This document shows, in pieces, positions 3,765 to 53,672 of a stretch of 64,000 nt of DNA (the first letter of the stretch is position 1; the number at the start of each line of letters is the position of its first letter). Source of the stretch: an uncultured bacterium (GTDB taxonomy: Bacteria; Verrucomicrobiota; Kiritimatiellia; RFP12; UBA1067). The stretch covers positions 3,788 through 67,787 of the forward strand of contig CADCCW010000007.1 in assembly GCA_902800055.1 (NCBI GenBank), written 5' to 3'. Below the pieces are notes generated by a model. That model ran no database searches. It saw nothing but the letters and a program-made list of their open reading frames with translations, and was not told the DNA's origin. The translations under genes and the position numbers were made by a program.

Positions 3765-3833
3765 CTCCGCGGCAGTTTTGCCTCGTGCGGAGACGCAGAG
3801 ACGTAGAGGATTGTTTGGTTATTTTGAGTTTTT

Positions 3834-16041: not shown

Positions 16042-16076
16042 CACGAGCCACGAATCACGAACCACGAAGCACGAAA
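16042..16076 (+). repeat. tandem heptamer array CACGAAN x5
   Basis: CACGAGC CACGAAT CACGAAC CACGAAG CACGAAA. Related arrays are at 38909-38922, 45401-45435 and 51289-51323. Confidence 0.85.
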
Positions 16077-16105
16077 CCGAGGGGGTTGCCAAACTGCCGC
16101 GGATT

Positions 16106-37974: not shown

Positions 37975-37981
37975 TCGCATC

Positions 37982-38791
37982 ATGATTGTCCTTATTGCAG
38001 CTTTCGCCGCCGGGTGCGGCGGTTTCGCCGCGGCCCGCTGGGGCTTCGGCGCCGGAATCGGCTGGAGCGTGTTCTGGGGGATACTCTCTCTGGTAGTCGC
38101 CCAGTTCGTCCTCGGGTTCCTCGTCCAGCGCCGCGTGAAGGCGGTGATGAACGCAGTGCAGTCCATCCTGCTCGCCGGGCAGAAGCGCCTGCAGCAGAAG
38201 ATGCAGCGCTGGCAGATGCGCCCGCCGGGCTCGGTGCAGGCCGCCCAGAAGGAGATCTTCGCCGACACCAAGGTGTTCGTGCAGGACGCGCTCGCGAAGG
38301 TGGAAGAGCTCAACCGCTTCCGCCTGCTCGTACCGATGATGGACCGCCAGATCGCCACCGCCAAGGTGCAGCTCGCCTGGATGATCAAGGACTTCAAAAC
38401 CGTCGACGCGCTGATGCCGAAGGTGCTGCTGGTGGACCCGATGATGACCGCGATCAAGATCGCGCGCCTCCACATGACCGGCGGCGACTTCAAGGAGATC
38501 GAGAAGCTCTACCGCAAGGGCGTCGGGCGCGTGCGCTACAACGGCAACGTCCTCCTCGCCGCGGAGATGAGCTGGATCCAGGTCAAGCGCGGCGACGCCG
38601 ACGGCGCGTTCAAGACGCTCACCGAGGCGCTGAAGAAGAGCGACGACGCGACGCTGAAGCGCAACCACGAGTGCCTGATGAACAACCGCGTCGGCCACTT
38701 CTCCAACTCCGGCCTCGGCGACCAGTGGTACTCGCTGCTCCTCGAGGAGCCGAAGGTCCACGTCCAGCGCCAGCGCAGCGTCTACCGCTGA
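37982..38791 (+). CDS. hypothetical membrane protein (two N-terminal TM helices, helical repeat C-terminus)
   Basis: MIVLIAAFAAGCGGFAAARWGFGAGIGWSVFWGILSLVVAQFVLGFLV, then a helical, TPR-like region. No named family recognised. Confidence 0.6.
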   Translation: MIVLIAAFAAGCGGFAAARWGFGAGIGWSVFWGILSLVVAQFVLGFLVQRRVKAVMNAVQSILLAGQKRLQQKMQRWQMRPPGSVQAAQKEIFADTKVFVQDALAKVEELNRFRLLVPMMDRQIATAKVQLAWMIKDFKTVDALMPKVLLVDPMMTAIKIARLHMTGGDFKEIEKLYRKGVGRVRYNGNVLLAAEMSWIQVKRGDADGAFKTLTEALKKSDDATLKRNHECLMNNRVGHFSNSGLGDQWYSLLLEEPKVHVQRQRSVYR

Positions 38792-38798
38792 GGCGGCG

Positions 38799-38858
38799 GC
38801 AGAAGAAGCGGAGGCTGTTTTTAACGCAAAGAACACAAAGAACACAGAGGGCTCTTTG
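38799..38858 (+). repeat. conserved 5' block of the P3/P4 leader
   Basis: GCAGAAGAAGCGGAGGCTGTTTTTAACGCAAAGAACACAAAGAACACAGAGGGCTCTTTG matches 51161-51220 at about 55 of 60 positions. Confidence 0.85.
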
Positions 38859-38863
38859 GAAGT

Positions 38864-38894
38864 GTTTGAGGGTTTGAGTGAAGAGTGTTTGAGT
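38864..38894 (+). repeat. tandem octamer GTTTGAGN (x3 plus one degenerate unit)
   Basis: GTTTGAGG GTTTGAGT GAAGAGT GTTTGAGT. TTTGAG also flanks both hairpin repeats. Confidence 0.7.
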
Positions 38895-38963
38895 TCTGGC
38901 TTTGCTCCCATGAATCACGAATTTGAATCCACCAATATCACCACCAACAACGAGGATAACACC

Positions 38964-41900
38964 ATGAACACCCAAGTAGTGAAATCTGCTGCGGTCAAGG
39001 TGCTGGCGGTGGGCGCGATGCTAGCGGCAACAGCGCCGTTCGCTGCGGTCGCGGACGAAGGCAAGTCTACTAGCGACTATGTCCAGGACGGACTGGTGGC
39101 GCAGTGGGACGGCGTCGAGAACGCCGGGGTCGGGGTGCACGAAGACTCGCCGAGTGCGTGGGTGGACATCGTCGGCGGCCTGGAGATAACCATTCCAGAA
39201 TGGGTGACGGTGGAGACGAACGCCTTCTATTCGGAATCCTCGACCGCCACGCGCACCTATCCGTCCATCTCCTCGATTCCCGGCCTCGGCGACAACGTGA
39301 CGATCGAGGTCGTTGCCGAGCGCGTGATGTGGCGCGATAAGACCAACTACGGGAATCTCCAGCCTGTCATCACTTCGCCCTACGCGAAGTTTGGCTATCG
39401 TCAGGACTCCACGGCGGGCGTCTTTTATCAGATGCCAATCGGCACGAACAACAAGCTGTGGCTCTACACGAGCACAAGCGGAAGTTTCGACGTTTCTGAA
39501 TGCCACACGTACACTGCAAGGGTCACCATGCCAAGGGACGTGTCCAACACGCTGCTCGTCGATGCGGCGACGGTTCCAGGCTGGGCTAAGGAGGGTACCG
39601 ATGGATTGCCGACCGATCCGCCAACCAACTGGACGTTCTTCAGCGCGCCGCGCGCTGATGTACGCCTCCACGCCATCCGCGTCTACAACCGCAAGCTGAC
39701 CGACGCCGAGGTTACGGCCAACGCCGCCGTGGACAACGTGCGCTTTGTCGAGGGGAAGATTTCCAACGGCACGCTCAAGTCCGCGCTGGAGAACGTCAGC
39801 ACCAACAGCGTGAACCTCGTCTGGTCGCTGGTGACGTCGGCGGACCCGGCGCCGACGGTGACGGCCCGCTTCGTGAGCGGCCGCGAGCCGGATCTCTCGG
39901 ACGGCGTCGCCCGCGCCCTCGGCACCATCTCCGCCAACACCGTCGTCACCTCCGCCGTCCCGTTCGTGCGCTACGCCACGACCTACTGGCGGCTTGAGGC
40001 GGAGGACACCAACGGCAAGTCCTACGTCACGGCGACCAAGACGGTGCCGGCCTTCTCCCTCGACTCCACTTCGTATGTGTCGTCCGGCCTGGTGGCGCAG
40101 TGGGACGGCGTCGAGAACGCCGGGCGCGGCGTCCATTCCGACAGCCCGACCGTCTGGAAGGACCTCGTCGGCTCGAATGACATCACTCTGCCTGCATGGG
40201 TCTCGGCCACGGCGAAGGGGATGGATTCAGTCGGCTCGTCCGAGTCGAGGACGTATCCTGAACTTGCGTCGATCACCGGCCTCGACGGCGACGACGTCAC
40301 GATCGAGGTCGCGGCGAGGCGCGTCCGCTGGACGCAGACCGACGACTACGGGAACCTCCAGTCATTCTTCACTTCGCCATGGGGGCATTTCGGGTACCGG
40401 TTCAACCAGAACGACGCCTTCTACGCCTACCTTCCGCCAAACGGAAACAACGCCGGCCAGGCGAAGCTCTACAACATCAACACCGGAACCGGTGGCGCCA
40501 AGGTTACCGAATGCCAGACCATTGCCGGGCGCATCACGCGCAACTCGTCGTCGGCCCAGAACGGGCTGTTCATCAACGCCGCCGCGCAAACGCTCGTGTA
40601 CGCCAACTATTCCGCCAACCTCGGGAGCAGTTGGAAGTTCTTCAACAATCCCCGCACCGAGATCGAGTTCTACGCCATCCGCGTCTACAACCGGCGGCTG
40701 ACGAGCAGTGAACTCGCGGGGAACGCCTGGGTCGACAGGCTCCGCGTGACCGGCGAGATGACGGACAACGCGGCTGCGCCGCTCCAGATTGCGTACGACG
40801 GCGCCGGCGCGTCGGTCCGCAAGGGATACTACTGCTGGCCGGTGCCTGGCGAGGCCTTTTCCCACCGCGTCGCCTACTCCGTGCCGGACGGCGACTACCA
40901 GTCGCTCTGCGTCGGGTGGACGCGCTACGTGGAAACGAGCACCGACGTCTGGGAGGAGGAGGCGCACGGCGCGACCTGCGAGGCGTCGTATCTGCCCGAC
41001 TCGCGCCGTCACCGCCTCGTCTTCCACACGGCGAAGTGGCGGGACTTCCCGGCTGGATATGCTCGCCTCGACGGCCTTGTCGCCAACGGCAACCAGATAA
41101 TCGACACCGGATACTACCCGAACTACCATACCTATTGTGTGATCGACCTCAAGTTTACCGGCAACACCTACAACTACCAAGGTAGCGTCAGCCCCTTCGG
41201 CGCACCGCCATCCGCAGGCGGACTGCAGTTTTCCGTCAATTTCGGCGGCAATGCCAACCAAGGAACAACGCTCTTTTTCTGGACCCGCTACAACTACGCC
41301 ACCGGCGGCGACAGTGAAATCCGCCAAATGACAACTACCGCCAATACCGTCAAGAACCGCAGCAGCCTCTATATCCACATGACGGATGGCGGAGCACAAT
41401 ACGGGGACACGCTAATAGGAATCAAGCAGCGCGCGGAGGATCAGACACAGTCGACGACGTTCAGGCTCTTCGGTCTCACCGCCCCGTTCAACGGCTACGA
41501 CAGCATGACCATCTACGGCACCAAGCTCGGCGAACGCGTCGGAACCGACACGACGTATCAGCGGGACCTCGTCCCGGCGCGGTCCGCCGAGACGGGCCTC
41601 CGCGGGCTCTACGACTACGTGACCGGCGGCTTCTTCACCAACATCGTCGAGAACGCCGCGGAGGACTTTGCCGGCGATCTGTCCTCCGCGGTCTACATCG
41701 ACGGCGAGCCGTCGCGGATTGGCGAGCCGACGATTCCCTACGGCTATGCTGAGATGGAGTCCGGCTGGGAGTTTGAGCTTGCGGAGACGAACACGGTGAA
41801 GACGACCGGGCACCAGATGCACGTCAAGTCGATTGCGCGCTACACTTACAACGACACGACTGGCGCGTGGACGCTCGCCGAGCGCACGAAGGGCGGGAAG

Positions 41901-41984
41901 GTCACCGCAACCTACTCCGGCGCGCCGACGCGATACGTCCTGGAATGGGCCGAGAACACCGGCTTCTTCATCTACCTGCACTGA
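38964..41984 (+). CDS. giant secreted protein P3: two LamG-like domains plus one DFVP module and C-terminal extension
   Basis: GAGGA SD plus ATG 38964. Signal peptide is MNTQVVKSAAVKVLAVGAMLAATAP. Duplicated GLVAQWDGVENAG...(H/Y)AIRVYNR(K/R)LT. FPAGYARLDGLVANGNQIIDTGYYP...YQRDLVPARSAETGLRGLYD. C-terminus is GFFIYLH*. The ORF-track start at 38856 (TTG) is also in frame. Confidence 0.85.
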   Translation: MNTQVVKSAAVKVLAVGAMLAATAPFAAVADEGKSTSDYVQDGLVAQWDGVENAGVGVHEDSPSAWVDIVGGLEITIPEWVTVETNAFYSESSTATRTYPSISSIPGLGDNVTIEVVAERVMWRDKTNYGNLQPVITSPYAKFGYRQDSTAGVFYQMPIGTNNKLWLYTSTSGSFDVSECHTYTARVTMPRDVSNTLLVDAATVPGWAKEGTDGLPTDPPTNWTFFSAPRADVRLHAIRVYNRKLTDAEVTANAAVDNVRFVEGKISNGTLKSALENVSTNSVNLVWSLVTSADPAPTVTARFVSGREPDLSDGVARALGTISANTVVTSAVPFVRYATTYWRLEAEDTNGKSYVTATKTVPAFSLDSTSYVSSGLVAQWDGVENAGRGVHSDSPTVWKDLVGSNDITLPAWVSATAKGMDSVGSSESRTYPELASITGLDGDDVTIEVAARRVRWTQTDDYGNLQSFFTSPWGHFGYRFNQNDAFYAYLPPNGNNAGQAKLYNINTGTGGAKVTECQTIAGRITRNSSSAQNGLFINAAAQTLVYANYSANLGSSWKFFNNPRTEIEFYAIRVYNRRLTSSELAGNAWVDRLRVTGEMTDNAAAPLQIAYDGAGASVRKGYYCWPVPGEAFSHRVAYSVPDGDYQSLCVGWTRYVETSTDVWEEEAHGATCEASYLPDSRRHRLVFHTAKWRDFPAGYARLDGLVANGNQIIDTGYYPNYHTYCVIDLKFTGNTYNYQGSVSPFGAPPSAGGLQFSVNFGGNANQGTTLFFWTRYNYATGGDSEIRQMTTTANTVKNRSSLYIHMTDGGAQYGDTLIGIKQRAEDQTQSTTFRLFGLTAPFNGYDSMTIYGTKLGERVGTDTTYQRDLVPARSAETGLRGLYDYVTGGFFTNIVENAAEDFAGDLSSAVYIDGEPSRIGEPTIPYGYAEMESGWEFELAETNTVKTTGHQMHVKSIARYTYNDTTGAWTLAERTKGGKVTATYSGAPTRYVLEWAENTGFFIYLH

Positions 41985-45400: not shown

Positions 45401-45435
45401 GACGAACAACGAGCCGCGAATCACGAACCACGAAT
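45401..45435 (+). repeat. tandem heptamer array (G/A/C)ACGA(A/G)N x5 abutting a promoter
   Basis: GACGAAC AACGAGC CGCGAAT CACGAAC CACGAAT, ending 1 nt before the TGATATAAT extended -10. Confidence 0.8.
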
Positions 45436-45436
45436 A

Positions 45437-45445
45437 TGATATAAT
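45437..45445 (+). promoter_or_regulatory. extended -10 promoter (TGATATAAT), leaderless
   Basis: The hexamer ends 8 nt before ATG 45454. Confidence 0.55.
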
Positions 45446-45453
45446 ACACACTC

Positions 45454-47112
45454 ATGCGAGATTTCAACGACAGGAAGGTGAGGAAGGCCATCGTCCTTGC
45501 GGCTGGCTTCGGCACGCGGCTGAGGCCGTTTACGTGCGCCGTGCCCAAGCCGCTCCTGCCGGTCTGGGGCGAGCCGATGCTCGCGCGCGTCGTCGACAGG
45601 CTGCGCTCGCTGGGCGTCGAGGAGATCGTCGTCAACTGCCACCACCTGCACGAACAGGTCGAGGCGTGGTGTGCGACAAACGGCTGCCGCGCTGCCTTCG
45701 AGCCGGAGATCCTCGGCACCGGCGGCGTCCTTAACCCGCTACGCGAATGGATCGGCGGCGATGACTTCTACCTCGTCAACGGCGACATCGTCCTTGAGGG
45801 CTTCGACGGCTTCGGCGAGGGCGCGCTGGGCGTCAAGGGCGCGGACGGGACGGGCGCAATTGCTTTTGCGCTTACGGCCGAGACGGGTCCGCGCACGATC
45901 GAGGTGGAGCCGCATAGCGGATTCGTCACCAACTGGAGCAGCGACGACGCCGGCTTCCCCGGCACCTTCACCTACTGCGGCTTTGCTCTCTTGTCGGCGA
46001 AGATCCTCGACTACGTCGAGCCGACCGGTTTTTCATCCATCATCGCCGCCTACGAGCGCGCGATGGGCGACGGCTGGTTCGTGAAGGCGGTTTCGCCGAA
46101 GGGGATGCTATGGACCGACGCCGGGTCGATCGACAGCTACCTTGACGTCAACCGCCACGAGGACGACAACGCCTTCGCCGACCTGCCGCAGCTCAAGGCG
46201 ACGGTTGGCGACGGCGACGGCGCGGTCGAATTCCTCGGCGCGCGCGGCAGCGACCGCGCCTTCTTCCGCCGCGGCGACAAGATTGCCATCGTCTACGACG
46301 ACGCCAAGCGCTCCGAGAACGCGCTCTACGCGCCGCAGGCCCGCTGGCTGAAGGAGCGCGACGTTCCGGTGCCGGCGGTTCTCGCTGACCGGCCCGACCT
46401 CAAGGCGCTGGCGATGGAGTGGGGTGGCGAAGAGCGCAAGATGTCGCTTGCCGACCGCGTGCGCGTCGTCGAGGAGCTCGCGAAGTTCAATGCGCTCGGC
46501 GCGCGCTGGGCAGATTCCGCCGCGGAGGGCCTGCCGAAGCTCATGGAGGCGTTCGGTCCCGAGACCTGGGCGTGGGAGCGCGGGCTTTTCGCCGAGCACT
46601 GCCTTGGGACGCGGTTCCGACGCGAAATGCCGGCGGCGGTGGAGACGGAGCTGAAGGCGGTCGCCGACCGGCTTGAGCACGAGCCGAAGGCGCTCGTCCA
46701 CCGCGACTTCCAGTCCTCGAACGTGCTCTGGAAGGGCGACGAGCCGTGCTTCATCGATTTCCAGGGGATGCGGCTTGGTCCCGCGGCCTACGATCTTGCG
46801 TCGTTCGTCTACGATCCCTACGTCGACATCTCCGAGCGCGAGCGCGAGGCGCTGGCGCTCAAGTACGCGCAGGTCTCCGGACGCGAGGACATCGCCGGCG
46901 TCCTGCCGTTCGCGGCGGTCGAGCGGCTGGTGCAGTGCCTCGGCGCCTACGGCAGGCTCGCCTCGGTCGGCCAGCCGCAGTTCGGCAGGTACGTGCTGCC
47001 GGCGCTGGAGCGGCTACTCGCGGCGGCGGACGAAGCCAACCTCGACGCCACCGGCGCGCTGGCCGAGGACCTCATCGCCGAGGAAGGGCACCACCACCAT
47101 CACCACAAATGA
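45454..47112 (+). CDS. bifunctional sugar-1-phosphate nucleotidyltransferase / sugar kinase (MurU-AmgK-like fusion) with natural His6 tail
   Basis: N-terminus has KAIVLAAGFGTRLRPFTCAVPKPLLPV (NTP_transferase). C-terminus has LVHRDFQSSNVLW...FIDFQGMRLGPAAYDLASFVYDPY (APH-fold kinase, AmgK-like). Ends EEGHHHHHHK*. A LicC/LicA-type function cannot be excluded by eye. Confidence 0.75.
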   Translation: MRDFNDRKVRKAIVLAAGFGTRLRPFTCAVPKPLLPVWGEPMLARVVDRLRSLGVEEIVVNCHHLHEQVEAWCATNGCRAAFEPEILGTGGVLNPLREWIGGDDFYLVNGDIVLEGFDGFGEGALGVKGADGTGAIAFALTAETGPRTIEVEPHSGFVTNWSSDDAGFPGTFTYCGFALLSAKILDYVEPTGFSSIIAAYERAMGDGWFVKAVSPKGMLWTDAGSIDSYLDVNRHEDDNAFADLPQLKATVGDGDGAVEFLGARGSDRAFFRRGDKIAIVYDDAKRSENALYAPQARWLKERDVPVPAVLADRPDLKALAMEWGGEERKMSLADRVRVVEELAKFNALGARWADSAAEGLPKLMEAFGPETWAWERGLFAEHCLGTRFRREMPAAVETELKAVADRLEHEPKALVHRDFQSSNVLWKGDEPCFIDFQGMRLGPAAYDLASFVYDPYVDISEREREALALKYAQVSGREDIAGVLPFAAVERLVQCLGAYGRLASVGQPQFGRYVLPALERLLAAADEANLDATGALAEDLIAEEGHHHHHHK

Positions 47113-49190
47113 ACGCCATCCGCCAGCTGCTCAAGAAAGTGAAGTCGACGGGCACCAGGCTCGCCGGGCAGGTGAAGACGGTTTCGATGGGGCGCGAGCG
47201 GGTTTTCGAGGCGTACAACCTTGGCGACGACACCTTCGTCTTCGAGCGCGGCGTTTCCGCCCGCCTCGCCGAGCGTCCGAGCGTGCTGGTGGTGGACCGG
47301 CGCTGGCTGCGGCGGCGCGGGCGCGGCAAGGTGATGACCGTCACCACCGGCAACCACGCGGTGGCGGCAATGCCGCTCCTGGACGGCAGGTTCTGGAAGC
47401 TCTCTTCGCTGCCGGTCTCTCGCCGCAGCGACGTCATGACCAGCGCCATCCTCTGCGCCAACATCGTCGACGGAAGGCTCGAGGTTTCGCAGCGCGACGT
47501 GCCAACGCCGGAACTCGTCTCGCTCGACCGCTGGCTCGTGGACGCCGCGGGACTCGGTCTCGGGGGCGTGGTGATGCTCGACCGCAACGAGTCCGCGCTC
47601 GACCACTACCGGCGCCTCGGCCAGGAGTGGCGGGTGAAGCCGCTGGTGTGGACCGAGAAGGAGATGCTCACCCAACTCGCGGCGTCGCGCAAGCGCATTT
47701 CCTCGAAGACGCGCTACTACCACTCCTCGCGCGGAGTCCACTTCCTGACCTACCCCGAGTTCATGCGCCTCGTGGCGCTCGCCGAGACCTCGCCCGCCGA
47801 CTTCGTGGCGGGGCTGCGGGAGATCGTGAGCATCTTCGAGGGCAACACCGTCTCCTTCTCGCGGATGCCCAAGTACCGCGGCCACCACGAGATCGAGTTC
47901 TTCGGCCTCGGGCGCGGCGTCGGCGTGGAGCGGATCGTCCCCGAGCTCGAGAAGCTGATGGAGGCGGTCGCGCTCGGCCGGCTCGGCCAGCTCGGCGTCA
48001 TCCAGAAGGCGCGCGAGGCGGCGGCGCTTTACCAGTCGCTGCTGACCACGCCGGAGTTCGCCGACGAGTCATCGCCCGTCTTCGTCGAGAAGCTCTACAT
48101 GTACGTGACCGGCGAGGTCTACTCCGTCGTCGGCGACGGATCCACTCCGTCCTTCGACGACCGCCGCACCGCGCTGCCGGGAGCGACGTTCGTCGGCGGC
48201 CGGCCGGTGATGCACCCCGGCGCCGACGTTCGCAGCGAGGTGCTGCTCTCCAACCTGCGCGGACTCCTCTCCAAGGACGAGTTGGTGGAGTACGCGAACA
48301 TCTACGAGCTCCGCGAGGACGACTCGGTGCCGGTCGGCCGCGGGCGCACCCGCGAGGTCGTGTACAAGACGAACATGCGCCCGCTGGCGACGAGCCTCAT
48401 CGAGAAGGGGCTCTCCTCGCGCCGCCGCGGCTACGCCGAGTACATGCTCGCGCGCATCGGCGCGCTGCGCGCGATGGGCGTGTCGATGAGCGCCTACTAC
48501 CGGGTGCTCCGCCGCCGCCCCTCCACCCGCTCCGCGCCGTCCGACTTCTACATCCGCATGCGCTGCGAGGGCGAGCCGATCGAGTCGATCCCCGCCAACT
48601 GGTTCCGGAGCGGAGAGGACTCCTCGGTCGAGGTCGAGGACGTGGTGCTGGGCCTCGCCGCGCTGATGGGCGACGCCGCCGCGCAGAACATGGCGATGAA
48701 GAAGTTCGACCCCAAGACCGAGAGCCCGCTCTATGGCGTCGGCAAGGAGATCTACGAGTTCGAGTACGACATCATCAAGGAGCAGGTGGTACCGAAGAAG
48801 GTGGCGACCTGCTCCATCCGCGGCAGTTTCGGCTGGCCGGACCTCTCCTTCACCGACCAGAACGTGAACGCCTTCGCCTCGTTCTACTTCACCCACTTCG
48901 CGCACGCGCTGAAGGACTTCTGCCGCCACCACACGGTGCCGATGGCCGATCTCGCGGAGCGCTTCATGAGCGGATTCGAGTTCCGCACCCGCGCGATGGC
49001 GTGGCAGCTCTCGGTGATGCGCGACGGCTTCGAGTCCTTCTCGCCGCCGGTGCCGCCGGCCTACCGCTTCGCCGAGAAGTGGCGCTTTGCGATGTGGGCG
49101 CTCGAACGCCAGGAGCGCCGTCTGCCGCTGCTCAGGAAGATGTTCTTCGAGCGAGTCGCGCTTGTACAGAGTGAGTCGTCAGGGACTTAA
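47109..49190 (+). CDS. large uncharacterised cytoplasmic protein (693 aa)
   Basis: ATGA overlap with the upstream fusion gene. No signal peptide or TM. No named domain recognised. The C-terminal half carries kinase-like strings (see findings). Confidence 0.7.
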   Translation: MNAIRQLLKKVKSTGTRLAGQVKTVSMGRERVFEAYNLGDDTFVFERGVSARLAERPSVLVVDRRWLRRRGRGKVMTVTTGNHAVAAMPLLDGRFWKLSSLPVSRRSDVMTSAILCANIVDGRLEVSQRDVPTPELVSLDRWLVDAAGLGLGGVVMLDRNESALDHYRRLGQEWRVKPLVWTEKEMLTQLAASRKRISSKTRYYHSSRGVHFLTYPEFMRLVALAETSPADFVAGLREIVSIFEGNTVSFSRMPKYRGHHEIEFFGLGRGVGVERIVPELEKLMEAVALGRLGQLGVIQKAREAAALYQSLLTTPEFADESSPVFVEKLYMYVTGEVYSVVGDGSTPSFDDRRTALPGATFVGGRPVMHPGADVRSEVLLSNLRGLLSKDELVEYANIYELREDDSVPVGRGRTREVVYKTNMRPLATSLIEKGLSSRRRGYAEYMLARIGALRAMGVSMSAYYRVLRRRPSTRSAPSDFYIRMRCEGEPIESIPANWFRSGEDSSVEVEDVVLGLAALMGDAAAQNMAMKKFDPKTESPLYGVGKEIYEFEYDIIKEQVVPKKVATCSIRGSFGWPDLSFTDQNVNAFASFYFTHFAHALKDFCRHHTVPMADLAERFMSGFEFRTRAMAWQLSVMRDGFESFSPPVPPAYRFAEKWRFAMWALERQERRLPLLRKMFFERVALVQSESSGT

Positions 49191-49203
49191 GGAGAAAACG
49201 CAA

Positions 49204-50448
49204 ATGAAAAACATCGACTACAAATGGCGGGCGCTCGCGCTTCTGTGGGTTGCCTTTTTCCTCCAGCAGGGCACGCGGCAGCTCTTCGGGCCGTCGGTTC
49301 CCGCGATCTGCGCCTCGATCGGCGTGGACAAGGTGGCGATTGGCGTGGTGGGCACGGTGTTCGCGATGATGTACGGCATCTGCGTGCCGTTCGCGGGGCT
49401 CACCGCCGACCTCTTCAGCCGCAAGTGGATGGTGGTGTCGGGCGTGGCGATCTTCTGCCTCGGCATCTTCCTCTCCGGCTTTGTCGCCTCGGTCGGGCTC
49501 CTCATCGTCACCTACGGCGTCCTCAACGGCTTCGGCCAGACGTTCTACTATCCTTCCGCCACCTCGCTTATCTCGCAGCTCCACAAGGAGTCGCGCGCGA
49601 CGGCGATCTCGATCCTGCAGCTCGGCCTCTACATCGGCATCATCGGCTGCGGCAGCCTGGCCGGCTTCCTCGCCGGGAAGGGCGGCGAGAGCTGGCGCAC
49701 GCCGTTCTGGATCTTCGGCGGCATTGGCCTCGTCTGGGCGGCGCTGATGATCTTCACCCTGCGCGACACCAAGCCCGTCGCCGCGCCCTCGGGGGCGGTG
49801 GACAAGCCGTCGATCGCCGAGGCAATGAAGGCAGTCCTTTCCAAGCCGACCGCGATCTGCGTGACGCTCGGCCTCGCGATGATGATCTACGTGGACATCG
49901 GCTTCAAGAACTGGATGCCGTCGCACCTACAGTCGCAGTTCCTCGACTCGTGCCCGTTCCTCCAGCGCTGGGCCGGCCTCCACGCCGTGGTCTGGCACTA
50001 CGTTGGCGCGGTGATCGGCGTCCTCGTCGGCAGCCGCATCGGCGACCGGCTGGTGAAGTCCCGTCCCGGCATCCGGCTCGACCTCGGCGTCGCGGGGCTG
50101 GGGCTGGCGATTCCCTTCATCGTCTGGATGTCGCTCACCCCGTCCTTCGCGCTCTGCTGCGCGGCGATGTTCGGCTTCGGCATCTTCCGCGGCGTCTACG
50201 ACTCGAACTTCATGGCGAGCTTCTTCGACGTGGTGAACCCGCGCTACCACGCCTCCGGCGTCGGCATCATGATGTGCATTGCGTTTCTCTTCGGTTCGCT
50301 CTCGTCGACGGTGCTGCCGGTCATCGCCAAGGCGTTCGACGGCAAGATGGGCTTCAGCATGGCCTCGCTCGCCGGCTTCTACCTGGTCGGCGTCGCGATC
50401 CTCGCCCTCGCCCGCTTTGCCTTCCTCCGCCGCGACCTGTCCAAGTAG
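49204..50448 (+). CDS. MFS transporter
   Basis: AAGGAGAAAA SD. 12 predicted TM helices. LTADLFSRKW loop 2-3 motif. Confidence 0.88.
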   Translation: MKNIDYKWRALALLWVAFFLQQGTRQLFGPSVPAICASIGVDKVAIGVVGTVFAMMYGICVPFAGLTADLFSRKWMVVSGVAIFCLGIFLSGFVASVGLLIVTYGVLNGFGQTFYYPSATSLISQLHKESRATAISILQLGLYIGIIGCGSLAGFLAGKGGESWRTPFWIFGGIGLVWAALMIFTLRDTKPVAAPSGAVDKPSIAEAMKAVLSKPTAICVTLGLAMMIYVDIGFKNWMPSHLQSQFLDSCPFLQRWAGLHAVVWHYVGAVIGVLVGSRIGDRLVKSRPGIRLDLGVAGLGLAIPFIVWMSLTPSFALCCAAMFGFGIFRGVYDSNFMASFFDVVNPRYHASGVGIMMCIAFLFGSLSSTVLPVIAKAFDGKMGFSMASLAGFYLVGVAILALARFAFLRRDLSK

Positions 50449-50483
50449 GGGATGAAAAATTTTCACACTATTTTCCCTTGAGG

Positions 50484-50492
50484 TGGTAATAT
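50484..50492 (+). promoter_or_regulatory. extended -10 promoter (TGGTAATAT), leaderless sigma factor gene
   Basis: The hexamer ends 8 nt before ATG 50501. Confidence 0.45.
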
Positions 50493-50500
50493 GCTTTTAG

Positions 50501-52759
50501 ATGGGCATTATCAAAGACATCCACGGCGACATCGAGCGGGAGGCGGCGCTTCTCCTCGATAGATACCGTGATGCACTGATGCTGGAGGCGCTCACGCTTT
50601 CCTCCGGTGACTCCCATGCCGCCGAGGAGCTGGTGCTCCAGACCTTTGAGGCGTATCTCTTCGGCCGCGAGCGGTTCGACCCTTCGAAAGGCGAGCTGCT
50701 GCCGTGGCTGCGTGGCATCCTACGCAACATCCACGGCAAGGCCGGGCGTGGCAAGTCGGTGAAAGCTGTATCTTATCTCTCGCAGGACGAGCTTGAGCTT
50801 ATCAGCGAAATCCGCCGGCAAGACAACTCCACCGACGAGGAGATACTCTCCAATTCCGATTCCGAAGTGATCCGCAAGGTGATAGAGGCGCTGCCGGACA
50901 AGACGAGGCGGATAATCGTCTTGCGCTGTTTTGAGTCCGCCTCCTTCGGGGAAATCGCCCGTTTGCTCGGCATCAGCGAGATTTCGGTGAAGAATCGGTT
51001 CTATTACGCCCGCAAGCTTTTGGCGCGGCGGCTCGGCAAGCTCCTGGGCCGCGCACCCGCCATTGCGCTTGGCGTAATTCTCGCCGGGGCCTCGCTCCTC
51101 TACGCAGCGGCGGTTGTCACCGGCCTCGCCCCATCGCCGTTCGCTGCGGCGGAGCCCGCGGCAGAAGAAGCGGAGGTTGTTTTTAACGCAAAGAGCACAA
51201 AGGACACAGAGGGGGCTTTGACAGGATTGCCTGCCGTGGGGACAGACCCCGAGCCTGCCGTCTCAAGTCTCTCGTCTCAAGCCCCGGCCTCGAACCACGA
51301 ATCACGAACCACGAACCGCGAAACCAATGGGGACAGTCCCCAGCAACCCGAGGTGATAACTGCCAATTCTGAAACCAACAACGAGGAAAACACCATGAAC
51401 ACCCAATTGGTCAAATCTGCCGCGGTCAAGGCACTGGCGGCGGGCGCAATGCTCGCGGCGGCGGCAGTTCCGGCGAAGAGCACGCAGGCGACGGATCTGC
51501 CATCTGGCTACACCAAACTTGAGTACATCCAGGGTGACGGCGCGAGCGCCCGCCTCATAACCGACTACACCCCCAATCCGCAGACAGACAAAATCGAGGC
51601 GGTAATCGAGTGGCCAGCGGAGACAATCGGCGGAAACCAGCAAGTCTGGTGTGCGCGAGGCACTAGCGGGACGGACAAAACTTATACATTGTTCGCAATC
51701 GGTTCCAATCTTCGTTTTGACTACAACAAAACACGGGGAGATCTGCTTACGCCAGAAATCTCCGAGGGGGTGAAATACACCGTCACCGCCGATCGCTACA
51801 TGTTTACCTGGTCGGGCGGCAACGGGCAGACTCATACTGAAAGCACCATTTTTCAGTCGACAGGCTACCCATTAGTGCTGTTCGCGTCCTATGCCAGAGG
51901 TGTCAACACCGAAGTCGTAAACTATGGCAAGCACCGGCTATATTCCTTCAAGGTCTGGCGCTCGGATGAACTCATTCACGATTTCGTACCGTGCAGAGAC
52001 CCGAACGGCGTGGCGACGATGGTTGACGTCTGCGACAATCCCGCGACGCTGACGGTCCAGGGGACATTCATCGCCCCTGGCGACAATGGAAAGTTGCCAG
52101 CTGGATACACCGAGGTCCAGTATATTCAGGGTAACGGTGAGGACGCCCGCATCGTCACCTCTTATATTCCGCATCCGCAGACAGACAAGGCCGAGGCGGT
52201 GGTCGAGTGGCCGTCGTCGGTCGGTGATGCCTTGTCAGGAAATCAGGGTGTATGGTGCGCACGAGGCTCGACAACATCGACCGCATCCTGGACGCTGCAC
52301 ATGCTGGGCAATAGCGGCGGCAAGTTCCGATTCGACTACAACTCGGCATCAGGCAACCTTCTTGAGCCTGCGCTTTCCACAGACGTGAAGTACACCGTAA
52401 CGGCCGACAGGAATGTGGTTTCATGGTCGGGCGGCAACGGGCAGACGCACACGCCGGTTATTGGCTTTACAGCTGCCGGCGATCGAATGGTGCTTTTCGC
52501 TGTGTATAGCGGCGGAACAATCGATACATATCCAGGCAACTACGGCAAGCACCGGCTCTACTCCTTCAAGGTCTGGCGGTCGGGTGAGCTCATCCACTAC
52601 TTTGTGCCGTGCAAGGATCCGAACGGCGTAGCGACGATGGTTGATATTTGCTACAACGCGGCACTGACCATAGATGGCACCTTCACCGCCGGTCCCGAAG
52701 GGCACTACTACGACGATAAGCTCTTCAGGCCAGCGGGTACGGTGTATTACATTCTATAG
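50501..52759 (+). CDS. continuous ORF: ECF-type sigma-70 factor, hydrophobic helix, repeat-encoded linker, then P4 module protein
   Basis: Region 2 is LVLQTFEAYLFGRERFDPSKGELLPWLRGILRN. Region 4 HTH is RRIIVLRCFESASFGEIARLLGISEISVKNRFYYARKLL. No in-frame stop until 52757-52759. Whether one or two proteins are made is unresolved. Confidence 0.5.
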   Translation: MGIIKDIHGDIEREAALLLDRYRDALMLEALTLSSGDSHAAEELVLQTFEAYLFGRERFDPSKGELLPWLRGILRNIHGKAGRGKSVKAVSYLSQDELELISEIRRQDNSTDEEILSNSDSEVIRKVIEALPDKTRRIIVLRCFESASFGEIARLLGISEISVKNRFYYARKLLARRLGKLLGRAPAIALGVILAGASLLYAAAVVTGLAPSPFAAAEPAAEEAEVVFNAKSTKDTEGALTGLPAVGTDPEPAVSSLSSQAPASNHESRTTNRETNGDSPQQPEVITANSETNNEENTMNTQLVKSAAVKALAAGAMLAAAAVPAKSTQATDLPSGYTKLEYIQGDGASARLITDYTPNPQTDKIEAVIEWPAETIGGNQQVWCARGTSGTDKTYTLFAIGSNLRFDYNKTRGDLLTPEISEGVKYTVTADRYMFTWSGGNGQTHTESTIFQSTGYPLVLFASYARGVNTEVVNYGKHRLYSFKVWRSDELIHDFVPCRDPNGVATMVDVCDNPATLTVQGTFIAPGDNGKLPAGYTEVQYIQGNGEDARIVTSYIPHPQTDKAEAVVEWPSSVGDALSGNQGVWCARGSTTSTASWTLHMLGNSGGKFRFDYNSASGNLLEPALSTDVKYTVTADRNVVSWSGGNGQTHTPVIGFTAAGDRMVLFAVYSGGTIDTYPGNYGKHRLYSFKVWRSGELIHYFVPCKDPNGVATMVDICYNAALTIDGTFTAGPEGHYYDDKLFRPAGTVYYIL
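51161..51220 (+). repeat. conserved 5' block of the P3/P4 leader (copy inside the sigma ORF)
   Basis: About 55 of 60 identity to 38799-38858, including TTTTTAACGCAAAGA. Confidence 0.85.
51289..51323 (+). repeat. tandem heptamer array CACGAAN x5
   Basis: CTCGAAC CACGAAT CACGAAC CACGAAC CGCGAAA. A second 7-nt array (GTCTCAA GTCTCTC GTCTCAA) lies at 51260-51280. Confidence 0.8.
51395..52759 (+). CDS. secreted protein P4 (internal start): two tandem DFVP jelly-roll-like modules
   Basis: GAGGA SD plus ATG 51395. MNTQLVKSAAVKALAAGAMLAAAAVPA is nearly identical to the P3 start. Two modules run LP(S/A)GYT..(E/Q)YIQG(D/N)G ... YGKHRLYSFKVWRS.ELIH.FVPC.DPNGVATMVD. C-terminus is GTVYYIL*. Confidence 0.65.
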   Translation: MNTQLVKSAAVKALAAGAMLAAAAVPAKSTQATDLPSGYTKLEYIQGDGASARLITDYTPNPQTDKIEAVIEWPAETIGGNQQVWCARGTSGTDKTYTLFAIGSNLRFDYNKTRGDLLTPEISEGVKYTVTADRYMFTWSGGNGQTHTESTIFQSTGYPLVLFASYARGVNTEVVNYGKHRLYSFKVWRSDELIHDFVPCRDPNGVATMVDVCDNPATLTVQGTFIAPGDNGKLPAGYTEVQYIQGNGEDARIVTSYIPHPQTDKAEAVVEWPSSVGDALSGNQGVWCARGSTTSTASWTLHMLGNSGGKFRFDYNSASGNLLEPALSTDVKYTVTADRNVVSWSGGNGQTHTPVIGFTAAGDRMVLFAVYSGGTIDTYPGNYGKHRLYSFKVWRSGELIHYFVPCKDPNGVATMVDICYNAALTIDGTFTAGPEGHYYDDKLFRPAGTVYYIL

Positions 52760-52781
52760 CCCGCTACTAAGCATAGGTTTT

Positions 52782-52790
52782 TGGTATAAT
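52782..52790 (+). promoter_or_regulatory. extended -10 promoter (TGGTATAAT), leaderless
   Basis: The hexamer ends 6 nt before ATG 52797. Confidence 0.6.
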
Positions 52791-52796
52791 ACGCGC

Positions 52797-53672
52797 ATGG
52801 CAAAGGGAATATTTTCCGCGGCGGTTGCGGCGGCGATCTGCTGCGTTGTTGCCGTGGGCTGCAGGACGCGCGCGCCGCTGATGGTCGCGCACCGCGGCGC
52901 CGGCGACCTGGAGATGCCGGAGGCGTCGCTTGCGGCGTACTCGAACGCCGTGGCGACGGCATGCGACATCGTAAAGCTCGACCTGTTGGAGACGAAGGAC
53001 GGCGTCGCGGTCATGGGGCACGACGTGGACCTGTATCGGGCGATGAAATGGGGCGCCCGCGTATGCGACGTGACCTACGACGAAATCGTCGCCCGCGGCT
53101 TTCTCGTCCCGGTCGGCGGCTATGCGCACGAGCGGATCGTGCGGCTGGACGAGGCGCTGGCCGTCGTCAAGGACATTCCGCAGTTCTGGATCGACTTCAA
53201 GCGGTTCTCGCCCAAGTTCGCCGAGAATGTCATCGCTACCTTCAGGCAGGCCGGCATCGACGAATCGCGGCTGATGGTCGCCACGTTTTCCGAGGCGGCG
53301 CTCGCCTATATGCGCGAGCACCACCCCGCGATCCGCCGCGTTGGACACGTCGGCATCTGGCAGGACGAGGAGCGTGGCCTTTGGCACAGCACCGTCGGCG
53401 GCTCTTCGCGCACCAGGGAGGAGCAGATCGAGGCGGTGGTCGGCTGGCGCGACCGCTTTGGGCTCTTCGGCGTGAACATGCGCGTCCTCTACGGCATCAC
53501 GACGCCGGCGGACGTTGCCTACCTGCAGCGGCAGGGACTTTGGGTGTCGCTCTGGTTTGTCCAGAGCGCCGAGATGGCGGCCGAGTACCGGGACGCCGGT
53601 GCGGACGCCTTTGTGACCGACCATGTCTCCGAGGCGCGGCGCGGGCTTGGGATTCCGCCTCCGTCCAGGTGA
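52797..53672 (+). CDS. glycerophosphodiester phosphodiesterase family lipoprotein
   Basis: Lipobox VAVGC. MVAHRGAGDLEMPEASLAAYSNAV (HR..G..PEN-like GDPD motif). GADAFVTD near the C-terminus. Confidence 0.8.
   Translation: MAKGIFSAAVAAAICCVVAVGCRTRAPLMVAHRGAGDLEMPEASLAAYSNAVATACDIVKLDLLETKDGVAVMGHDVDLYRAMKWGARVCDVTYDEIVARGFLVPVGGYAHERIVRLDEALAVVKDIPQFWIDFKRFSPKFAENVIATFRQAGIDESRLMVATFSEAALAYMREHHPAIRRVGHVGIWQDEERGLWHSTVGGSSRTREEQIEAVVGWRDRFGLFGVNMRVLYGITTPADVAYLQRQGLWVSLWFVQSAEMAAEYRDAGADAFVTDHVSEARRGLGIPPPSR

Follow-up and report, generated by a model that had tools for sequence, protein, structure and literature searches.

What does a bacterium make from an open reading frame (ORF) that begins as a sigma factor and runs on, with no stop codon in between, into a secreted lectin-like protein? 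The question is raised by positions 50501 to 52759 of a 64,000-nucleotide stretch of DNA (hereafter the window; positions 3,788 to 67,787 of contig CADCCW010000007.1, GenBank assembly GCA_902800055.1) from an uncultured member of the Kiritimatiellia (Verrucomicrobiota). The original prediction, made from the letters alone, had set out three readings of this locus: a membrane-tethered sigma factor and sensor in a single polypeptide, two genes whose separating stop had been lost by recombination, and a fusion that can be switched by tandem 7-nt units. We found the frame to be unbroken, as claimed, over 752 codons with zero internal stops, and a protein search returned homologues that span the full ORF at up to 97% identity, with relatives at 51-57% identity still covering 100% of the query. 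Judged by these and the further comparisons below, the locus belongs to a large and so far undescribed family found in Kiritimatiellae-type bacteria, in which an extracytoplasmic function (ECF) sigma factor is fused to a complete secretory precursor. The first of the three readings is the best supported, through the continuity of the frame, the avoidance of stops and the size of the family. The parts of the ORF are as follows.

50501..52759 (+): the whole ORF, comprising in order an ECF sigma domain, a transmembrane helix, a linker, a signal peptide, two lectin-like domains and a C-terminal tag
50555..50728 (+), aa 19-76: sigma-70 region 2 (Pfam PF04542, 22.4 bits, slightly below the gathering score of 24)
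50864..51022 (+), aa 122-174: sigma-70 region 4 helix-turn-helix (PF08281, E 3e-11; PF04545, E 3e-7)
51053..51127 (+), aa 185-209: transmembrane helix APAIALGVILAGASLLYAAAVVTGL, preceded by the basic flank RKLLARRLGKLLGR and followed by an acidic flank
51128..51394 (+), aa 210-298: linker, acidic and rich in A, E, S, T, P and N, with short modules shuffled among family members
51383..51387 (+): Shine-Dalgarno sequence GAGGA, 7 nt 5' of the internal ATG
51395..51397 (+): internal start codon, ATG (Met299), at a conserved start position
51395..51490 (+), aa 299-330: signal-peptide-like segment MNTQLVKSAAVKALAAGAMLAAAAVPAKSTQA, with Lys in the n-region, an h-region rich in Ala and a cleavage-type motif TQA
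51461..52759 (+): replaceable cargo cassette (mature protein to stop), delimited by comparison of strain loci
51509..52069 (+): lectin-like beta-sandwich domain 1 (ConA/LamG-like), from an AlphaFold 2 (AF2) model and Foldseek
52097..52699 (+): lectin-like beta-sandwich domain 2, an internal repeat of domain 1, from the same AF2 model and Foldseek
52736..52756 (+): C-terminal tag GTVYYIL, with the family pattern G-x-x-hydrophobic x3-[RKHL]-COOH

Since a protein search could favour long proteins, we scanned metagenome DNA with a pattern anchored solely on the transmembrane (TM) helix. This retrieved 14 contigs, 12 of which reach through the linker, and in all 12 the frame continues into a signal peptide and cargo. 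Measured between the TM Tyr codon and the internal ATG at the 17 loci having both anchors, the distance ranges from 195 to 315 nt and takes 12 different values; it is a multiple of three at 16 of the loci, and frame 0 is free of stops in 15, while frames +1 and +2 average about three stops each. These counts bear on the proposal that two ordinary genes, for a membrane-anchored ECF sigma factor and a secreted lectin, were joined by chance or artefact, the read-through having no function. Such an accident might be suspected from the second half of the ORF, which has all the signals of an independent gene, from linker modules that are also found in true intergenic leaders, and from the G+C content of the window (65.7%), which makes open frames common. 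It would, however, place only a third of loci in frame, with about three stops per linker, and not produce what was seen across 12 lengths in independent assemblies from several studies, nor an architecture that is retained down to about 30% sigma identity. The fusion is thus not accidental, a chance origin being very improbable indeed, and these comparisons make us highly confident that it is conserved and kept by selection. Of the two-gene reading, then, the lost stop as an accident is rejected, but the independent-gene signals on which it was founded have been kept and are conserved throughout the family; since this holds for the Shine-Dalgarno (SD) sequence, the start and the signal peptide alike, independent translation of the second half is likely.

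The family to which the locus belongs is large. More than 100 fused proteins (at 90% clustering) were recovered by protein search, all of them metagenomic and the named ones from Kiritimatiellae metagenome-assembled genomes (MAGs); they are 700-1300 aa long and have sigma domain, TM helix, linker and signal peptide in common, while their C-terminal domains are unrelated (for example Beta_helix, Laminin_G_3 and LRR_5). When 1.84 billion representatives at 50% identity were searched with sigma domain and TM helix, at least 192 clusters were found at E <= 1e-10. Among the best 150 of these 192, 132 have a TM helix directly after region 4, 89 are 500-2600 aa in length, and most of the long members end in a G-x-x-three hydrophobic-R/K tag. 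The close relatives examined are from rumen metagenomes; L001, L064, L065, L080 and L082 among them were recovered from the sample sets STEW19 and XIEF21. At NCBI, the few deposited members are labelled just 'sigma-70 family RNA polymerase sigma factor', despite lengths in the family of 700-2600 aa.

Profile searches upheld the assignment of the N-terminal part to the sigma factors. The NCBIfam model TIGR02937 (sigma70-ECF) scores 62.5 bits (cut-off 42.9) over aa 19-178, the two region 4 models score 43.2 bits (PF08281, cut-off 25.7) and 30.2 bits (PF04545, cut-off 24.1), and the nearest solved structure is that of B. subtilis SigW (5wuq; aa 15-178, E 5e-8). Only region 2, region 4 and ECF models match this part, which ends at about aa 180 and lacks regions 1.1 and 3, and all NCBIfam subfamily and equivalog models stayed far under their cut-offs. 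The Pfam and NCBIfam models for FecR, zf-HC2 and RskA gave zero matches to the protein. Between the end of region 4 (about aa 178) and the start of the TM helix (aa 185) there is a spacer of about 7-10 residues, and an anti-sigma domain is absent; C143 is the sole cysteine within aa 1-300. Neither Kiritimatiellae nor Lentisphaerae appear in the main text of the ECF classification paper.

The hydrophobic helix noticed earlier was recovered at aa 185-209, with a Kyte-Doolittle peak of 2.35 and, for the best 19-residue window, a summed Hessa-type insertion energy of -0.67 kcal/mol, so that membrane insertion is predicted. This is the one TM segment predicted in the fusion, and the charges on its flanks predict the C-terminal part to be extracytoplasmic. 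Since 65% of the differences among homologues fall at codon position 3, the helix appears to be under strong amino-acid constraint. An AF2 model of the N-terminal 340 aa, of low confidence (mean predicted local distance difference test score, pLDDT, 47.6), places a helix at 186-207 and no secondary structure in linker residues 208-301 (pLDDT 26-31). Within residues 208-298 (91 aa) there are 15 acidic and 4 basic residues, and the differences among homologous linkers are spread almost evenly over the three codon positions (0.33/0.29/0.37). As frame 0 is nevertheless open, it appears that the residues of the linker are free to vary, but that its frame and openness are not.

The second half of the ORF has start signals of its own, and the earlier description of a GAGGA motif, an ATG at 51395 and an N-terminus like that of P3, a stand-alone protein encoded elsewhere in the window, proved accurate, the two N-termini being near-identical. 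Across 21 distinct loci, fused and unfused, each codon position of ACCAACAACGAGGAAA, the sequence directly 5' of the ATG, is invariant to at least 80%, and E296 and M299 are the only invariant linker positions in an 18-sequence alignment of close relatives. Further afield, 93 of 111 diverse representatives have a Met and a signal-peptide-like segment 60-130 residues past the TM helix. Positions -5 to -3 across the family read [EQK][EGK]E (with Glu at -3 in 56 of the 93), which is the translation of a AAGGAGGA-type SD sequence 6-9 nt before the start. Several of the representatives that lack the Met carry Val or Leu at this position, and the DNA of L082, one of the strain loci considered below, reads GGAGGAAAATGCC-GTG (GGAGGA then GTG); position 299 thus behaves as a start codon and not as a residue. 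The 50 nt around 51395 have a minimum free energy of -2.9 kcal/mol compared with an ORF mean of -11.7, and are among the least-structured 2%. In the unfused loci P3, L001, L062 and L053 the internal start is the sole start, and it follows the stop of an unrelated gene in L001 and a fucosidase-like gene in L062. Because the internal SD sequence and start codon are conserved family-wide and the site is unstructured, the locus probably yields both a sigma-cargo protein tethered to the membrane and the cargo alone as a free, secreted product.

The signal-peptide segment is also the N-terminus of the stand-alone proteins P0009, P0036 and P3. Its summed insertion energy of +5.07 kcal/mol means that it is not predicted as a TM helix; a role as a second TM helix was rejected on this value and because it would put a secreted-type cargo in the cytoplasm. 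A scan of genome collections with the DNA motif of the signal peptide gave mostly chance hits, the relevant ones being only RUG10963, RUG10640 and one Kiritimatiellae MAG. The relation of the fusion to P3 is defined by four further features.

51144..51220 (+): leader-homology block 1, 87% of 77 nt identical to the P3 intergenic leader at 38782-38858
51374..51459 (+): leader-homology block 2 (SD sequence, start codon and most of the signal peptide), 88% of 86 nt identical to P3 38943-39028
38792..38960 (+): leader of P3, made of sigma-linker modules that are here intergenic, after the TGA of an unrelated gene (37979-38791)
38961..41984 (+): P3, a stand-alone family member with the same SD sequence, ATG and signal peptide, a different cargo and the tag GFFIYLH

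The ends of the linker had been described as about 90% identical to the P3 leader: two such blocks do exist, at 87% and 88%, and the motif of each occurs in exactly 2 copies in the window and in 0 copies in shuffles. The claim that P3 is a paralogue holds for its leader and signal peptide, which are shared, but not for its mature part, which is unrelated. As had been observed, the P3 frame is open for 93 codons 5' of its ATG, although no sigma gene precedes it, and the leader begins exactly where homology to the post-TM linker begins. Orthologues of P3 (P0025-P0030, about 1280 aa) are fused to a sigma domain elsewhere, with the same mature N-terminus, ADEGKSTSDYVQDGLVAQWDG.

A rival account takes these shared blocks as its starting point. 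Only the full-length fusion would be functional, and the internal SD sequence, ATG and signal peptide would be relics maintained by recombination with stand-alone paralogues; the 87-88% identity of the leader and signal-peptide blocks, found between two loci of one genome and extending to synonymous sites, fits such an origin, as does the documented recombination at exactly these blocks. Homogenisation of this kind cannot, however, explain the internal start, since SD-like motif, start and signal peptide persist in the 93 of 111 representatives despite sigma identities of only 30-45% and linkers that defy alignment. Nor would a relic be expected to vary as a start codon does (the residues in place of Met being Val or Leu, as from GTG or TTG) or to lie in an unusually unstructured region. 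We consider this account unlikely.

The term lectin-like, used for the cargo in the original prediction, holds at the level of the fold only, since structural matches were found but Pfam and NCBIfam gave no family, either for the cargo or for P3. In an AF2 model of the 454-aa C-terminal part (15 homologues, mean pLDDT 76) two beta-sandwiches are predicted, and the best Foldseek matches in the PDB are laminin LG4-5 pairs (E 9e-9), neurexin LNS domains, tandem galectins, pentraxins and the lectin domains of sialidases. On this model the cargo is lectin-like (ConA/LamG-like) in its fold. The repeat can also be seen in the amino-acid sequence, as PxGYTxxEYIQGxG...YGKHRLYSFKVWRS..LIH.FVPC, and a search for further lectin-like repeats found no second copy in the window.

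The C-terminal tag is present on almost all family members, whether fused or stand-alone. In the window it ends three secreted-type ORFs: 50501-52759 (GTVYYIL, 52736-52756), 38961-41984 (GFFIYLH, 41961-41981) and 1287-3764 (GSVYYLR, 3741-3761). No sorting-signal model of Pfam or NCBIfam matched it, and it may be a new sorting or degradation signal.

Comparison of strain loci revealed that the cargo is a cassette. Two loci at the same chromosomal position as the fusion in the window, with the MFS gene upstream, are colinear with it up to 51460 (L082, 94%) or 51463 (L077, 96%) and then continue into unrelated cargo, while a third, L064, is colinear up to 52760 and diverges right after the stop. 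Among proteins, P0003 has a sigma domain only 46% identical to that of the window and a cargo 99% identical, whereas P0015, P0016 and P0017 have sigma domains 98-100% identical and unrelated cargo; in P0005 and P0006 the cargo (98-99% identical) has another signal peptide and no sigma domain. These alignments show that the head of the protein (sigma domain, TM helix, linker and signal peptide) is portable and that cargo is exchanged between strains.

The surroundings of the cassette vary as well. The flanking genes, for an NTP_transferase/APH protein, a 693-aa protein and an MFS transporter, are 94-96% identical between the window and L064, L077 and L082. Downstream of the cargo stop there is a GDPD gene in the window and in L001, and a PhdYeFM/ParE toxin-antitoxin pair with a TonB-dependent receptor in L064; since the region past the stop differs, the variable segment goes beyond the cassette. 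In L082, two sigma-cargo fusions lie in tandem with an IS200/IS605-type Y1 transposase gene between them (3779-4609 of L082), the first fusion having a sigma domain 100% identical to that of the window and another cargo. The lectin gene of L001, 78% identical and likewise followed by GDPD, is preceded not by a sigma gene but by the 3' end and TGA of a homologue of the gene at 37979-38791; this looks like recombination between the two leader copies, as if the 12.4 kb between them had been deleted, and as only 50 nt of the contig remain upstream, the joint may also be an assembly chimera. In L053 (minus strand), a fragment of the P0005/P0006 signal peptide, MITSRNNKFSIGGKYRSLLIAAAVVAGFAP, lies about 100 nt 5' of the MNTK start and out of frame to TNNEENA-MNTK. 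The fragment closes with AAAVVAGFAP, which is similar to the last part of the sigma TM helix, LLYAAAVVAGFAPSPF, and the joint looks like a recombination scar.

The third of the earlier readings, the switchable fusion, depends on the tandem heptamers of the linker and has to be judged together with alleles in which the two halves are separate. Two tracts of 7-nt units had been proposed. The second was confirmed by Tandem Repeats Finder (TRF), as given in the following line; at 51260-51280 we find only three imperfect units, which TRF does not report.

51291..51322 (+): heptanucleotide array CGAACCA x4.6 (TRF, 88% matches, imperfect)

Orthologues with a stop or frameshift in the region 51060-51395, which had been named as evidence that would count against a fusion, do exist. 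L064, which is 95% identical to the window and syntenic with it from 45437 to 52760, reads CAG-TGA at a site that is CAG-CAA in the window and CAG-GGA in most relatives; it encodes a sigma-TM-tail protein of 272 aa, with the lectin gene intact and called separately, and contigs of two samples carry the allele. In L002 exactly 28 nt (four heptamers) are missing and in L080 there are exactly 7 nt (one heptamer) extra, in both cases with a frameshift and an intact cargo gene, and their shifted frames stop 10-20 codons 5' of the SD sequence. L081 carries a block duplication with a frameshift. Such alleles are a minority against a conserved fusion and do not overturn the tethered reading. By analogy with truncated forms of IutY, a Pseudomonas protein discussed below, they may be constitutively active.

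Since L002 and L080 differ by whole units, heptamer slippage does uncouple the halves. In fused proteins, by comparison, the number of heptamers varies by three units (21 nt), for example NHETN as against NHESRTTNHETN. We read these alleles as slippage that occurs and of which selection retains the in-frame outcomes. A phase-variable locus would go further: slippage of the 7-nt unit, whose length is not divisible by 3, would toggle between a fused protein and a sigma-TM-tail protein with a separate secreted lectin. The alleles L002 and L080 are what it would produce, with the cargo gene intact and still translatable, as the shifted frame ends before the SD sequence. On the other hand, the long, near-perfect tract typical of a fast switch is missing, the array having 4.6 copies at 88% matches (as the original prediction had noted in arguing against very frequent slippage), most relatives keep five units, the frame is maintained at 16 of the 17 loci, and heptamers are wholly absent from many linkers of the family. 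Moreover, the split alleles L064 (a point nonsense mutation present in two samples) and L081 (a block duplication) arose in other ways. The switchable reading is therefore weakly supported, and a programmed switch strikes us as rather improbable.

The linker and the region before the sigma gene hold further elements.

51238..51250 (+): palindrome GGGGACAGACCCC, with a second copy, GGGGACAGTCCCC, at 51329-51341
50449..50500 (+): AT-rich promoter-like block with TTCACA ... TAATAT boxes, about 10 nt upstream of the sigma ATG and with no SD sequence

The two linker copies of the palindrome, GGGGACAG(A/T)CCCC, are translated as G(T/D)(D/S)P, and an identical palindrome is found about 60-90 nt 5' of sigma genes in L015, L071 and L072. 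Heptamer arrays (CACGAAC/T units) are also intergenic at 16044-16077 and 45410-45436 of the window, just 5' of -10-like boxes; the first precedes gene 16161 (a 1032-aa secreted protein with no family match) and the second gene 45454 (NTP_transferase/APH). CCCCAGCAA is common to the 16044 leader and the sigma linker. Since arrays and CCCCAGCAA recur in intergenic leaders, the linker modules look like reused non-coding leader elements.

The AT-rich block is a candidate promoter: the pattern GA.GATTTTTTCACAC..TTTG.CC..TAATAT stands 5' of the sigma ATG in 18 related loci with differing upstream genes, so that the block travels with the sigma gene into varied genomic contexts. As it ends about 10 nt from an ATG that has no SD sequence, it suggests that the sigma mRNA is near-leaderless. 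A generic sigma-70 promoter scan of 50300-52900 found no promoter-like site and did not call this block, terminator-like sites in the same interval were at chance level, and an Rfam scan of 50900-51600 at E <= 1 gave no RNA family. GATAACT is conserved about 40 nt 5' of the internal ATG, and a promoter inside the linker near this motif is our guess. The heptamers contain GAAC and could be imagined as an ECF -35 element, but as there is no convincing -10 partner at the right distance this is left as speculation.

How might such a protein work? In the model that we favour, which we give a probability of roughly 0.6 as a whole (tethering, proteolytic release, dual product and cassette), translation from ATG 50501 would produce a type-II membrane protein, with the sigma domain in the cytoplasm about 7-10 residues from the membrane, and with the linker and two lectin-like domains outside the cytoplasmic membrane, the weakly hydrophobic signal-peptide segment being carried across. 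The tethered sigma domain would be inactive until two cleavages, the first in the outer part and the second in the TM helix, freed it (site-1 then site-2, like RseA, FecR and IutY), and truncated alleles such as L064 would be expected to undergo constitutive processing. Initiation at the internal SD sequence and ATG 51395 would give the same lectin-like protein in a free, signal-peptide-bearing form, to be secreted or held at the surface. Recombination at the end of the signal peptide and at the stop codon swaps the mature cargo, as the comparison of loci shows.

Several known systems resemble parts of this arrangement. To our knowledge, almost all ECF sigma factors require a separate anti-sigma protein, single-chain versions are few, and only IutY has been studied mechanistically. 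In the SigI/RsgI systems of cellulolytic clostridia, RsgI exposes diverse modules of carbohydrate-binding and glycoside-hydrolase type, and proteolysis controls SigI. The exposed modules are, as here, of the same kinds as secreted proteins, but sigma and anti-sigma factor are separate proteins, RsgI has a cytoplasmic anti-sigma domain, the system is specific to Firmicutes, and there is no nested gene. Nested in-frame starts are known from CheA-L/CheA-S, ClpB and IF2, where an internal SD sequence and start give a shorter C-terminal isoform; those isoforms share a compartment, whereas here the short form is predicted to be exported and the long form anchored. The linker also recalls contingency loci, in that a non-triplet tandem repeat lies within an ORF and alleles differ by whole units with changes of frame, yet the array is a short one of imperfect units, the frame is intact in most alleles, and a frameshift splits the fusion where in contingency loci it turns a gene off.

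The closest parallels are other single-chain sigma factors. IutY of Pseudomonas putida (ECF243), a hybrid of sigma and anti-sigma factor that serves cell-surface signalling, is activated by sequential proteolysis by Prc and then RseP, and its truncated forms are constitutively active (PMC5411451; PMC8999054). Like the protein encoded here, it combines in one chain an N-terminal ECF sigma domain, one TM helix and a periplasmic C-terminal part, but it has a FecR-type anti-sigma domain and a periplasmic FecR domain in communication with a TonB-dependent transducer, both of which are absent here. A whole secreted precursor with its own SD sequence, start and signal peptide, an exchangeable cargo and a C-terminal tag are in turn found only here. 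In the Actinobacteria, SCO4117 of ECF52 consists of a sigma domain, a TM helix, an extracytoplasmic linker of low complexity (Pro-rich) and a carbohydrate-binding module, with proteolytic release proposed, and in the S. clavuligerus orthologue a stop in the linker splits off the carbohydrate module (PMC5826349). The domain order is the same, that split parallels L064 and L002, and our protein has a TM helix, a disordered acidic linker and a cargo of predicted ConA/LamG fold, for which sugar binding is at most putative; the cargo of other members of the family is quite different. ECF52, however, has a zinc-finger anti-sigma-like domain before the TM helix, occurs only in Actinobacteria, and its set of domains is fixed; here no model matches the zinc finger, nor is there room for it between region 4 and the TM helix, and an internal start, signal peptide, cargo swapping and C-terminal tag have not been described for ECF52. 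In the absence of an anti-sigma or zinc-finger domain, the locus falls outside both the IutY and the ECF52 groups. Neither the ECF classification paper nor the review of non-canonical ECF factors describes a sigma factor fused to a signal-peptide-bearing precursor, and in the literature searched no paper ties Kiritimatiellota to such fusions.

With no anti-sigma domain, and with region 4 ending about 7-10 residues short of the TM helix, inhibition by a bound domain is unavailable, and one may ask whether the sigma domain is instead active while tethered and never released, recruiting RNA polymerase to membrane-proximal DNA such as its own locus, which would itself be at the membrane while the product is being inserted. 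A membrane-bound sigma factor in holoenzyme is, however, without precedent in the literature searched, those fused sigma proteins for which the mechanism is known are freed proteolytically, and the spacer is probably too short for docking of region 4 on RNA polymerase at the surface of the membrane. We hold activity in the tethered state to be decidedly improbable.

Turning to what weighs against tethering with proteolytic release, the model is built on sequence, its topology, release step, two proteins and regulon all being inferred; neither a protease for site 1 or site 2 nor a target promoter was identified; and the AF2 model of the N-terminal part, being of low confidence, was used for secondary structure only. 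The split alleles L064, L002, L080 and L081 imply that covalent linkage is not always needed, and about 10-20% of the short family representatives are perhaps split too. A protein search with sigma domain and TM helix alone returned 8 short proteins and none of the long ones known, and the two protein searches together are no unbiased census of fused and split forms. A signal peptide kept after a TM helix is topologically awkward and, if it inserted, the cargo would be cytoplasmic. Finally, as identical sigma domains occur with unrelated cargo, the cargo can hardly be a ligand sensor matched to a fixed regulon, unless that regulon amounts to the locus itself. This favours a head that reads a generic property of the cargo, or that mainly regulates its own locus.

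The last point can be developed into a more specific and more tentative proposal, which we regard as possible though doubtful: that the head is a portable signalling device independent of its cargo. A single gene would supply an exported protein in free form and a tethered copy of it. The tethered copy would span the periplasm via the linker, which is disordered and 60-130 residues long, from the cell surface, to which it would be sorted by the tag, to the cytoplasmic sigma domain, and its fate, be it export, sorting, ligand binding or degradation, would release the sigma factor to drive the same locus, possibly from a promoter in the linker; nonsense and slippage alleles would then represent a constitutive setting. 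Were this so, each exchangeable surface-protein cassette would come with a built-in feedback regulator.

In light of these comparisons, the family differs from known cases in lacking an anti-sigma domain and in containing a nested, in-frame secreted gene with conserved start signals. It differs further in that cargo is exchanged between strains at a fixed locus and in a C-terminal tag that is common to many stand-alone secreted proteins. If the model of dual products and proteolytic release is true, the family would represent a minimal way of coupling transcription to the state of a surface protein and a compact, modular sensor design for synthetic biology, and it would open a way to study regulation in Kiritimatiellae of the large sets of surface proteins that bind and degrade glycans.

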